A stretch of 57,392 nt of DNA, the filler included, from Catajapyx aquilonaris (lineage: Eukaryota), in NCBI GenBank assembly GCA_000934665.2. It is 2 parts of 2 records of this genome, joined end to end, with 100 filler letters (N's around TTAATTAATTAA, not from the genome) between each part and the next. Parts side by side here need not be neighbours in the genome. Positions count along the whole stretch, not along the records: positions 1 to 28,659 come from JYFJ02004892.1; 1 more part is not named here. The stretch is one strand, 5' to 3'. The notes beneath the pieces were generated by a model. It had not been told where the DNA came from, did not search any database, and saw only the letters and a list, made by a program, of their open reading frames with translations. Within the stretch, counting starts at the first letter, position 1, and each line of letters begins with the position of its first letter. The translations under genes were made by a program, and so were the position numbers. This document shows positions 9,101-12,100 of this stretch, piece by piece.

Positions 9101-12100
9101 AAATGAAACTCAGTTTTTGTCTACTTAGATCCTCAACTAAGAAATTTTGATTAGAAAATTAACTTTTTTCAAACGTTAAATGGACACAGAAGGTGTCAGG
9201 AGCATTTTAAAATCTTGAACATTTTACAGAAATGATCAAGATGATATATTTTTTGCAGTTGCAAGTTGTACACTAAAATTGATATTAATGGAGTAAATTG
9301 TGTGAATTACTGGTATTTGTTTCCTATTGAATTGCCCTATTGTGCCACATTGTGCAAACATGGTTGCAAGGCAATTAATTTTACAAAATATTACTTTTCA
9401 TGAATAACAAGCAACTGGAAAAATCGAGCATTTTAAATCATTGCCAGAAAATTTATTTAAAAACTTCTTTAATACTTCTAACCCATCAGTGGCTATACGA
9501 AGTTGGAATAAATTGCAAAGTCCTGATTTTCAAATTCAAATTACTGTGTTGGGGATCTAATTACAAAAACACTTGGAGTCTCACTTTTTCATATAATCTT
9601 ATTAGGAATCATATACACTCAATGTTATCATGGGCCACTGCAAAATCAATCCTAGATGGGTTTCTTTAGTTTTGACAAACTTTCTACTACCATACTGGAC
9701 TTTCTCTTGTTCAATTGGACCATTTAATATGTGTGCAAAATTATTTTATATTGTGGCCCTTACTGAGCCTCATGGTACAACAGACCATTCACAGCCTTAT
9801 TAATTTGCCAACCTTAATTTTAATGGCCAGCAAAAAATGGTTTAATATGAACAGGATGATTGTATGCGCATGTTAGCTACCTTTTCACTTGCAAGGGAGA
9901 ACATAATCTAAAATATAACTATTTTTCCATCATGACAGGTACTGACATGCACCATAGCTTTAGAAAGGGCATAAAAAATTATTCTTGTACCTTCAATATG
10001 TAGGTGTCAGATACTGTTGTTGAGCCATACAATGCCACCCTGTCTGTGCACCAACTAGTGGAAAACACAGATGAGACATTCTGCATAGACAACGAGGCCT
10101 TGTATGATATTTGCTTCCGGACGCTCAAGCTCAGCTCACCCACTTATGGGGACCTCAACCATTTGGTGTCGGTGAGTGGGCTCTTTATTAGCATGTAACT
10201 AATCCCTTTCCCCTCCCCTCCTCTCCTTTCCCATCCTGGAGTAAAGGTGTCTGATGTGGTGATTGAGAACTACAATGCTCTTCTATCCCTGAGCCTATTC
10301 ATTGAAGACACCACTATGACACAGATGGTGGATAATGAAGCACTGTATGACATCTGCGTGAGGACCCTCAAGCTGGGTGCTGCATCCTACCAGGATATGA
10401 ACCATCTTGTTGCCGTAAAAAAAATTGTTTTTTTTTACAAGAGTCCTAATTCCTTAGTAATGCAGTGTGGGACTAAATAGAGGCGTTCCTTCTTGGGAAA
10501 ACTGTTCAGTGACCATGATTGTGAAAGGAAGACATTCCATCTTTCTGGAGTTGATCATTGTGTGCTATCATAATGCAAATCTAATATTTTGCTGGGTAGC
10601 ACCTGACGTAGTCATTCCCTTTAGTGACAGCTGGCGTGTGGTTGCTGCGTTTTGCTCTTGCACATGATTGCACTCTGATTTTGGCAGATGTCAATCCAAC
10701 ATGCTGAATCATAAGCAAGCTTTTCAGATGAGAAACGCACTAGACAATACTGTACAGTACAATGGTGTTATGAAAGAGGTTAAAACAATATCAGTAAAAC
10801 TTCTATAAGTCGGAGGGTAAGAAAAGTTACTTTGGTTGTTAGATTCAAGGATTCAGTTGTCACAATCGAGTCAAACACTTCTTTCGGTACGTCTGGTAGA
10901 CGGAGATCAGGAAATTGAGCCTGATGTCTGTACATGTGGCCTACTCTCGACCCTTCGGCTGGGAAATTAGAAAATTTTCCGTACTCTCCATCATGAACTT
11001 CGACTTAGGGAGACTGAAAATGCATTGATATCCCATGGGCTACCATTTCTTACCATTTCTGCACATAAGCAGTTTGAGGAGTGGGTTTAGTCTCAATGTT
11101 TAGGGCCGGTTTCACCAAGCCTGATTTTGATAAAACCCCTGTTCTTTCGGAAAATCCCTATTCTATTTGCAGGGCTTTGCCAAAAGAACCGGGGTTTTAT
11201 CAAAACCGGGCTTGGTGAAACAGACCCTAAGTAATAATTTGCCAAGTGGTGAGGGCCACTCCATCCTTTGTCAGGTCAACACTTACCTTACCCAAATCCC
11301 ATAGTTTACGCGCGCCCCAAAAAAGTGGAGGGGTGGGGTAGAAAACAAAATGTGATGAAAAATCTCCGTTAAGATTATCTGGACTTTAGAATTGATAATT
11401 ATGAAGAGTAATAACAATGGAGCTAGAATGGCACCGAAGTTAAAGTTAATTTGACAGTTACCAACTGAAAAAAATATGATTACACTTTGGACAGTGAATT
11501 TCTGTGGGGTCTGGTAATAATTGCTGTCACTACATTAATTTGTTATGTAGCAGGACATTAATTTTAATAATGAACCTGAGGGGCCACACAAACCTGAAGA
11601 CAGCATTAAAATTAATTCCAAAAAATCCACCACAGAATTTAGAAATGTTTATCACGGCTTGCAAATTTCGAATTTTCTGTGCATTTTTGAGTGCAGGGAT
11701 TTAAAAAGCCATTTCACATCATTCAATTGAAATATTTTATCGTAGCACATTGCACTGAGGTCTAAATACACAATGTCATCACATTTTGAACATAACAATG
11801 TTAAAGGTAGTTCAGCAAAGGGGTAGCAAATTCTGAAAACTTAAACGATATATCGACATTTTAAATTCAGCGACAATTTTTTTGTAATTAATTTCAATTC
11901 AGTCATTGGGTTTGTGTGGCCCCTCAGGTTCGTCATTAAAATAAATCTCCTGCTATGTAACAAATTAATGTAGTGACAGCAATATATTATTACCAGACCC
12001 CACCGAAATTCACTGTCCCAAGTGTAATCATATTTTTTTCAGTTGGTAACTGTCAAATTAACTTAAACTCTGGTGCCATTCTAGCTCCATTCTTAAAGTC

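Follow-up and report, generated by a model that had tools for sequence, protein, structure and literature searches.

Diversity among tubulins usually comes from paralogous genes and from modifications of the tail. Residues 175–230 of tubulin extend from the T5 loop through helix H5, strand S6, helix H6, and the H6-H7 loop into the start of H7, a region that belongs to the GTP pocket and the plus-end-facing surface. In the literature searched, the only tubulin gene described with alternative exons is Drosophila betaTub97EF, and the searches yielded no account of a pair of alternative tubulin exons beyond Diptera. For Drosophila melanogaster, excerpts of two reports describe exons 4B and 4C as mutually exclusive, link the pair to cold adaptation and microtubule stability, and call it dipteran-specific (Findeisen et al., 2014, PMC4202323; Myachina et al., bioRxiv 10.1101/185827). 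The excerpt of the second report covers the study of this pair by qRT-PCR, junction counts, and transgenes, and states that cold shifts the two exon variants in opposite directions (bioRxiv 10.1101/185827). Protein records of other flies place the alternative exon of betaTub97EF-type tubulins at residues 175–230: the Drosophila mojavensis "tubulin beta chain" isoforms X1 (P0099) and X2 (P0105), taken here to be betaTub97EF orthologs, differ at 12 positions, all within residues 177–223, and Drosophila navojoa P0092 has 56 additional aa and includes both exon-4 copies, with separate X1 and X2 models also existing for this species. The original prediction made for the locus described below had pointed to exon-4 variants of betaTub97EF as a parallel; by the excerpted reports and the D. 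mojavensis isoforms, these variants are real and concern the same exon (PMC4202323; bioRxiv 10.1101/185827).

The stretch of DNA analyzed here (57,392 nt from the genome of Catajapyx aquilonaris, hereafter the window) contains a beta-tubulin gene with six introns at positions 6125–12997 of the plus strand, on which all features given below lie. Exon 1 (6125–6181) starts with ATG and encodes residues 1–19, exon 2 (8113–8221) encodes residues 20–55 and supplies the first base of codon 56, and exon 3 (8295–8650; 3' end CCAAAG/gtaagt) continues up to residue 174. Exon 5 (12262–12587) begins at residue 231 with VTMSG, a state that, by eye, is common to this gene and betaTub97EF-like proteins, and exon 6 (12673–12997) encodes the acidic C-terminal tail and ends with a TAA stop. 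Residues 175–230 are encoded twice, by the canonical exon 4A (10004–10171; acceptor atgtag/GTG, donor TCG/gtgagt) and by the divergent exon 4B (10247–10414; acceptor gtaaag/GTG, donor GCC/gtaaaa), which stand in tandem and are separated by an intron of 75 nt (10172–10246) whose sequence was read directly. Each copy has 168 nt (56 codons), phase 0/0, and AG/GT borders, just as had been proposed, and our gene model reproduced the coordinates of the predicted junctions 8650>10004, 8650>10247, 10171>12262, and 10414>12262.

Counted with only one exon 4, the coding region comprises 1341 nt and encodes 446 aa without an internal stop; the full-length product is a beta-tubulin throughout (Pfam Tubulin PF00091 and Tubulin_C PF03953), 94% identical over 389 columns to a 446-aa beta-tubulin of an arachnid cluster (P0058), and its exon-6 peptide matches 7882 tubulins. 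In a tree calculated without exon 4 (25 rows, quick search), the gene tentatively joins the 97EF-like Drosophila proteins and those of Blattella, Daphnia, Penaeus, and Oratosquilla in a group of 14 rows (SH-aLRT 84), which stands apart from the insect beta-1 group. When compared by tblastn, 4A and 4B show 58.9% identity (E 2e-19), a likeness far above chance, and a search of the whole window with each peptide found no third copy of exon 4 (next best E 0.36). The pair agrees in length, frame, splice sites, similarity, and adjacency with what has been published for mutually exclusive exon candidates (Pillmann/Hatje/Kollmar, as quoted in the excerpted PMC4202323).

We regard 4A and 4B as a probable functional alternative exon pair. 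The reading that we favor, with a probability of roughly 0.6, is that this betaTub97EF-like gene carries two tandem versions of exon 4 for residues 175–230, one of which would enter each mRNA: inclusion of 4A would yield the canonical beta-tubulin, and inclusion of 4B would yield a second isotype in which the nucleotide contacts are retained and the changes fall in the T5 loop, in H5/S6, and in the H6-H7 loop. As in betaTub97EF, a canonical first copy is followed in tandem by a divergent second copy of the same 56-aa exon, and 4B has T178V, S218G, and S219A in common with the second copy of the fly. In contrast, the identity between the two copies is 77% in the fly (44/56 residues in D. mojavensis) and 59% in Catajapyx (33/56 residues identical, 23/56 different), and 4B lacks D177E and alters P182, D197, E198, F200, C201, and P220, all of which are retained in the fly second copy. 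Exon use in the fly has been established by RNA data and transgenes, according to the excerpted report (bioRxiv 10.1101/185827), whereas the use of 4B in Catajapyx is predicted from sequence.

Judged from its translation, 4B is an unusually divergent second copy. Its frame contains neither a stop nor an indel across 56 codons, and translation upheld both the predicted number of differences from 4A and the predicted retention of motif residues D224 and NHLV. 4B retains D177, E181, N204, Y222, D224, and N226-H-L-V, among which we take D177, E181, N204, Y222, and N226 to be the nucleotide-contact residues seen in tubulin structures. The T5 loop carries the changes T178V, V180I, and P182N, other changes fall in H5/S6 (186–202) and in the H6-H7 loop (218–225), and the near-invariant residues altered include P182N, D197T, H190S, and P220A. 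The segment is nevertheless recognizable as tubulin in itself: it aligns to PDB beta-tubulin chains at residues 175–229 (phmmer, E 1e-15) and scores 22.4 bits (E 1.7e-4) against Pfam Tubulin. This score of 4B does not reach the cut-off of 33 set for whole proteins, as one would expect of a piece of 56 aa; 4A scores 33.2 bits.

Tandem first and second exon-4 copies were also found in Blattella germanica (PSN36952.1, P0116), in Daphnia galeata (CAH0103019.1, P0057), in the proteins P0127 and P0145, and in the metagenome locus L063. Given the copies in Blattella, Daphnia, and two metagenome records, the exon pair is probably much wider than Diptera. Most tandem records elsewhere are automatic predictions in which the two copies have been erroneously joined in series. 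In L063, both copies have 168 nt, good splice sites, and exon borders identical to those of the Catajapyx pair, and its first copy matches 4A at 55/56 residues. The spacer is 47–48 nt in L063 (an intron of 47 nt) and P0145 (16 codons), compared with 75 nt in Catajapyx, and the repeated unit of the Daphnia-like P0127 comprises 80 residues and starts about 24 residues earlier. In the non-dipteran records, second copies evolve fast and first copies are almost invariant; Catajapyx, likewise, has a canonical copy and, behind it, a divergent version of that segment. Among the 80 metagenome loci retained in our scan, six contain two matches to the 4A peptide, and the tandem exon pair occurs only in L063: L027 was rejected because it holds two tandem paralogous genes, and L001, L010, L018, and L020 were rejected because their second tubulin segment, 54–57% identical to 4A, lies on the opposite strand and is taken to be a neighboring alpha-tubulin gene.

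One alternative concerns the origin of the pair and is compatible with its function: Catajapyx 4A and 4B may derive from their own exon duplication, separate from the one behind the second copies of Drosophila, Blattella, and Daphnia, an account to which we give somewhat less than an even chance. Forcing 4A and 4B to be sisters costs only 0.8 lnL (AU p 0.445), and forcing all eight second copies into one clade costs 9.9 lnL (AU p 0.12); neither topology is rejected, with 56 columns and a very long 4B branch. In the exon tree, the second copies with E177/V178 cluster (support 82–90, together with three single-copy genes), whereas 4B lies outside this cluster in no firm position, and its branch (1.65 changes per column) exceeds in length that of every other copy. 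The proposed deep orthology with the betaTub97EF system stays plausible. D177E, present in all other second copies, is missing from 4B, the 80-residue unit of P0127 hints at more than one duplication of the segment, and E177/V178 occurs as well in P0034, a flatworm gene with one copy, which shows that these states can arise independently. Against a separate duplication speak T178V, which is common to 4B and all second copies compared and has its V178 in only 2/49 distinct canonical sequences, and the residues that 4B shares with Drosophila (G218 and A219), L063 (A220), and Blattella (A230). Overall, 4B is identical to other second copies at 28–32/56 residues, versus 33/56 to 4A. Tentatively, and at somewhat lower odds than a separate duplication, the residue-175–230 swap module of betaTub97EF-type tubulins could be an ancient pancrustacean device and not a dipteran invention, retained in flies, water fleas, cockroach-like insects, and Catajapyx, where the second cassette would have diverged to an exceptional degree and replaced residues that are invariant elsewhere, near the plus-end surface and the GTP pocket. 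If this were true, one gene would give rise to two biochemically distinct tubulins.

A second alternative, which we consider unlikely, is that 4B is a relic, once a working alternative exon or a long-kept duplicate, that is now unspliced and drifting, with the gene making only the 4A protein. The length of the 4B branch would fit such drift, as would the weaker-looking splice sites of 4B (AAG acceptor, GTAAAA donor), and no 4B-like protein was found in the collections searched. A word-index search found no close relative of 4B among proteins of 99–2000 aa (four matches from 29 candidates, the best at 64%) or among proteins of 30–98 aa; an exhaustive phmmer search of 1.84 billion representatives gave at best 67% (P0150, a fragment) among 150 listed of 1390 matches; and the metagenome scan, in which 595 pattern matches led to 325 relatives and to the 80 loci retained, yielded no close relative, only loci with 55–61% identity to 4B. 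Such absence is weak evidence, since isoforms would be hidden within 90%/50% clusters. The open frame of 4B is also weak evidence, since it survives in 3261/20000 neutral simulations run with the same 68 differences as between 4A and 4B.

Other properties of 4B argue against a relic. Bases identical between 4A and 4B number 31/56, 46/56, and 23/56 at the first, second, and third codon positions, respectively, and neither as few as 10 second-position changes nor at least 33 identical residues occurred in any neutral simulation (0/20000). When positions at least 95% conserved among 49 distinct beta-tubulins were defined as conserved, 4B was found to change 10/40 of them compared with 13/16 variable positions (Fisher p 1.6e-4), so that its changes avoid conserved positions, although the 10 near-invariant positions altered can be counted in favor of a relic. 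All nucleotide-contact residues are kept, both splice dinucleotides are intact, and GC3 is exon-like (0.57 in 4B, 0.52–0.74 in the other exons), with the long flanking introns at a GC of 0.32 and 0.38. The second copy of L063 is as divergent as 4B (34/56 identical) and yet has strong splice sites, which suggests that fast evolution is normal for second copies. Judged from these sequence features, 4B does not look like neutral decay and clearly shows the traces of purifying selection over a long time; these features may still be compatible with a loss of its use that is very recent. The view that 4B reflects selection and not decay, put forward in the original prediction, is supported by codon-position bias, position-specific conservation, simulations, and GC3; between 4A and 4B, dN is 0.365 and dS is saturated, with third positions near saturation.

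In the alpha-tropomyosin gene, the exclusivity of exons 2 and 3 is enforced by a branch point located too close to the upstream donor. The 4A-4B intron resembles this arrangement in being short and in the place of its sole CTAAT branch-site candidate, whose A (10202) is 31 nt away from the 4A donor and 45 nt away from the acceptor, ahead of a long pyrimidine tract (30 nt, A-free). We infer that CTAAT at 10198–10202 would serve as the branch point of this intron, and the location of this one good branch site so near the 4A donor may impede the joining of 4A to 4B. Unlike in the alpha-tropomyosin case, an intron of 73 nt is spliced in the same Catajapyx gene, and another A that might serve is found 14 nt before the acceptor. 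We had also considered that the 75-nt intron might be too short for 4A to be spliced to 4B, and rejected this, since the 73-nt intron implies that length alone does not forbid such joining. The AAG acceptor of 4B is preceded 5 nt upstream by GAG, the use of which would give an in-frame TAA.

We infer that 4B is probably included in mRNA of C. aquilonaris and that the use of 4A and 4B would be strictly either/or. A search for sequencing runs that contain the words of 10004–10414 gave three weak matches, two with 0.04 of the words and one (X3) with 0.34. Much less probable is that 4B is spliced in a manner that is not cleanly either/or, with both copies included (a 502-aa product) or with a 4B product that does not assemble and lowers the output of functional tubulin: messages with both or neither copy stay in frame (168 nt each), so that nonsense-mediated decay cannot police them, the 73-nt intron and the public models with both copies in series (P0057, P0092, P0116, and P0127) would be in keeping with joint inclusion, but the tandem models are automatic predictions, with separate X1 and X2 models for D. 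mojavensis and D. navojoa, a 56-residue repeat within the tubulin core would not be expected to fold (the same argument is made in the excerpted PMC4202323), the position-specific conservation of 4B argues for a folded, working product, and the sole CTAAT candidate lies close to the 4A donor.

Rfam gave no matches in the window, and no unusual fold was predicted for the 4A-4B intron region (z +1.16). Over the 4B donor, a 10-bp, almost pure A-U hairpin is predicted at 10415–10438 (GUAAAAAAAA / UUUUUUUUAC); the region 10405–10445 has an MFE of −6.9 kcal/mol and a z of −2.13, with 6/200 shuffles as good, and we treat this predicted hairpin as a lead only. As an addition to the ancient-device account, the suggestion that the hairpin might make exon choice temperature-dependent, by analogy with the cold response of the fly, seems very improbable.

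Under the favored reading of one exon 4 per mRNA, the gene would, like separate paralogous tubulin genes, provide two beta-tubulins with different core sequences. In contrast to paralogs, both would have the promoter, the UTRs, and the N- and C-terminal parts with the acidic tail in common, and only an internal module of 56 residues would be swapped. With its T5 loop, H5/S6, and H6-H7 loop altered, we would expect the 4B isotype to differ in polymerization dynamics or in drug or partner binding.

The comparison also flags a recurring annotation error, namely public models that string both exon-4 copies together. If the 4A/4B pair is used, this exon-swap device would be old and widespread in arthropods, and nature would have provided matched tubulin pairs that differ only in a core module of 56 residues, the most extreme of which are those of the Catajapyx genome and L063. 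Such matched pairs would be handy material for studying what each of these elements, T5 loop, H5/S6, and H6-H7 loop, contributes to the tuning of microtubule dynamics.

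The beta-tubulin gene of the window, whose exons we defined from stop-to-stop frames and the border sequence at each exon, lies on the plus strand and comprises exon 1 (6125–6181), exon 2 (8113–8221), exon 3 (8295–8650), exon 4A (10004–10171), exon 4B (10247–10414), exon 5 (12262–12587), and exon 6 (12673–12997, TAA included), with introns of 1931, 73, 1353, 75, 1847, and 85 nt; its CDS with a single exon 4 is 1341 nt long (446 aa). Exons 4A and 4B, each 168 nt and in phase 0 at both ends, align without gaps, contain no stops, and share 33/56 residues and 100/168 bases. The borders are tag/G (acceptor side) and G/gtgagt (donor side) in 4A, and aag/G and C/gtaaaa in 4B. 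The original prediction of two tandem 168-nt exons in phase 0/0 between AG and GT was correct in every checkable detail, including a 4B free of stops and indels with 23 of 56 residues changed. Searched against the window by tblastn, the 4A and 4B peptides matched two places only (E 2e-19; next best E 0.36), so a third copy is absent. Residues 175–229 of PDB beta-tubulins are the stretch aligned to 4B.

A single case of mutually exclusive exons in a tubulin is described in the accounts cited here, that of Drosophila betaTub97EF. Its exons 4B and 4C (fly numbering) are 76.7–77% identical (13 differing positions); cold moves the two in opposite directions, up for the major 4B variant and down for the minor 4C variant, and the pair is held to be characteristic of Diptera, with its origin in the dipteran ancestor (PMC4202323; bioRxiv 10.1101/185827). 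The over-expressed fly variants are described as unequal in toxicity (bioRxiv 10.1101/185827). Two D. mojavensis proteins annotated as "tubulin beta chain" X1 (P0099) and X2 (P0105), 456 aa, differ at 12 residues, all within 177–223; the alternative exon of the fly is therefore the one duplicated in the window (residues 175–230), and the fly exon-4 variants named in the original prediction are real and concern the same exon.

Several tests on the sequence indicate that selection at the protein level acted on 4B through most of its history. At codon positions 1, 2, and 3, respectively, 31, 46, and 23 of 56 bases are identical between 4A and 4B, third positions being near saturation and second positions mostly retained; the dN/dS check gave a dN of 0.365 (Nei-Gojobori) and no ratio, since dS was saturated. 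When 4A was given the same 68 differences as 4B in 20000 neutral simulations, the frame stayed open in 3261 (16%), which makes an open frame alone weak evidence for use, and not one of the 20000 runs had 10 or fewer second-position changes, at least 33 identical residues, or 10 or fewer changes at conserved sites. From 80 metagenome loci, 49 distinct canonical beta-tubulin segments were taken as a reference; of the 40 positions with conservation of 95% or more, 4B is changed at 10, compared with 13 of the 16 variable positions (one-sided Fisher p 1.6e-4). Its GC3 (0.57) falls inside the range of the other exons (0.52–0.74); the GC of the long introns flanking the pair is 0.32 and 0.38. D177, E181, N204, Y222, and N226, which we take to be nucleotide-contacting residues in tubulin structures, are all retained in 4B. 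The codon-position pattern, simulations, conserved-site test, and GC3 thus uphold the earlier suggestion of selection rather than decay. A recent loss of use would be compatible with all of them; that 4B is an unused relic seems unlikely to us.

If 4A and 4B are alternatives, the choice could be enforced by the splicing machinery only, because messages with both copies or neither would stay in frame. The 75-nt intron offers a single CTAAT branch candidate; its A, at 10202, is separated from the 4A donor by 31 nt and from the 4B acceptor by 45 nt and precedes an A-free pyrimidine tract of 30 nt. Ahead of the 4B acceptor region there is just one other A, 14 nt before the acceptor. In alpha-tropomyosin exons 2/3, donor and branch point are too near each other for joint occupancy. 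The candidate branch A likewise lies near the upstream (4A) donor, and by this analogy 4A-4B joining may be hindered. Length as the sole bar to joining was discarded: 75 nt is not prohibitive in a gene that splices an intron of 73 nt, and this is one point in favour of a non-exclusive or unproductive use of the copies, which we consider very improbable. The 4B acceptor is AAG (an upstream GAG would give an immediate TAA if used) and its donor GTAAAA; judged by sequence, both appear weaker than their 4A counterparts, as would fit a minor exon under regulation. At 10415–10438, the 4B donor GUAAAAAAAA and UUUUUUUUAC are predicted to be able to fold into a 10-bp, near-pure A-U hairpin (-6.9 kcal/mol, z -2.13, equalled by 6/200 shuffles); a temperature-sensitive mask of the donor is a possible, if weak and speculative, role, and no counterpart was found in L063, a metagenome locus with tandem exon-4 copies in its DNA.

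Intronic sequence between 4B and exon 5 also contains a large inverted repeat (11279–11644 and 11859–12203; arms ~365 nt in total, in three segments 96%, 95%, and 83% complementary; 214 nt between inner ends), ending ~58 nt before the exon-5 acceptor, which is probably a foldback-type mobile element and could loop out ~900 nt of pre-mRNA. A further 60-nt pair at 11100–11230 (87% complementary, 11-nt gap) looks like a miniature transposable element. Elsewhere in the window, exon-sized frames match Aa_trans (amino-acid transporter; 35454–36275, plus strand, E 1e-8) and HhH-GPD/HHH (endonuclease III-like DNA glycosylase; 45285–45761, minus strand, E 1e-9 to 2e-10), and HTH domains of Tc1/mariner-type transposases lie at 3–458 (minus) and 46348–46785 (plus).

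Tandem copies were also found in other records. The exon-6 peptide had 7882 matches in a protein search; 37 of the 120 listed entered the comparison set, and cluster look-ups supplied two further proteins. Both copies stand in series in proteins of D. navojoa (P0092, 512 aa), Blattella germanica (P0116, 471 aa, partial; 47/56 identical), and Daphnia galeata (P0057, 502 aa; 49/56) and in a Daphnia-like protein (P0127, 528 aa; 48/56), models in which an alternative exon pair has probably been misannotated; in P0127 the repeat unit spans 80 residues and therefore has a different 5' border. In L063 (1583–1965), two 168-nt exons 47 nt apart, with borders cag/GTG..TCT/gtaagt and ttcag/GTG..TCC/gtgagt, share 34/56 residues. 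P0145, a metagenome record from an exhaustive protein search, is a read-through with a 16-codon spacer and copies 38/56 identical. Both spacers are much shorter than the 75 nt of the window and, at 47–48 nt, plausibly too short to splice; the second copies of both have S197, G198, Y200, R216, and I217. Across the compared taxa, first (canonical, upstream) copies are near-invariant, whereas second (divergent, downstream) copies evolve fast but stay intact. T178V occurs in every second copy, 4B included (V178 in 2/49 distinct canonical sequences), and D177E in every one except 4B, which is among the most divergent. The literature searched, a limited collection, yielded no report of such a tubulin pair outside Diptera; judging from the Blattella, Daphnia, P0127, L063, and P0145 records, a restriction to Diptera seems too narrow.

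The proposed kinship with betaTub97EF was examined in trees. In a quick exon-4-less tree of 25 rows, the window protein fell in a 14-row group (SH-aLRT 84) with Daphnia, Penaeus, Oratosquilla, Amphibalanus, Petrolisthes, Blattella, Gryllus, and 97EF-like Drosophila proteins, separate from the insect beta-1 group. The 56-column exon tree joined the Daphnia, Blattella, L063, and Drosophila second copies (support 82–90), together with three single-copy genes carrying E177 or E177/V178, but left 4B, whose branch measures 1.65 changes per column, unplaced. AU tests rejected neither all eight second copies as one clade (p 0.12, cost 9.9 lnL) nor 4A and 4B as sisters (p 0.445, cost 0.8 lnL), and 4B shares 28–32/56 residues with other second copies versus 33/56 with 4A. 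The 80-residue unit of P0127 hints at possible repeated duplication of the segment. From these sequence comparisons, a single ancient duplication and an independent duplication in the window lineage seem about equally likely to us.

Near-invariant residues are replaced in 4B (T178V, V180I, P182N, H190S, L192F, V193I, D197T, P220A, L225M, S230A), and its Pfam Tubulin score is 22.4 bits versus 33.2 for 4A. At 198/200/201, 4B has M198, Q200, and M201 in place of E198, F200, and C201 of 4A; since positions 198 and 200 are where benzimidazole-resistance substitutions of fungal and nematode beta-tubulins map, a 4B isoform might bind benzimidazole-type ligands differently. The segment closest to 4B among the matches listed is P0150 (96 aa, 37/56 identical), which has V178, L189, S190, L191, M201, A219, and S221 in common with 4B, runs straight into sequence resembling exon 5, and appears to be a divergent, single-copy tubulin from a different organism.

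The architecture of the pair, selection on 4B, and identity with the betaTub97EF exon are shown at the sequence level, and we assign a probability of about 0.6 to 4A and 4B forming a working, putative alternative exon pair in this species. The 4B changes, presumably in the T5 loop, H5/S6, and the H6-H7 loop, map to or close to the exchangeable nucleotide and the face that contacts the next dimer, so that an isoform with altered assembly dynamics would be the natural expectation. Alternative exon 4 of this kind appears to be far more widespread than published.
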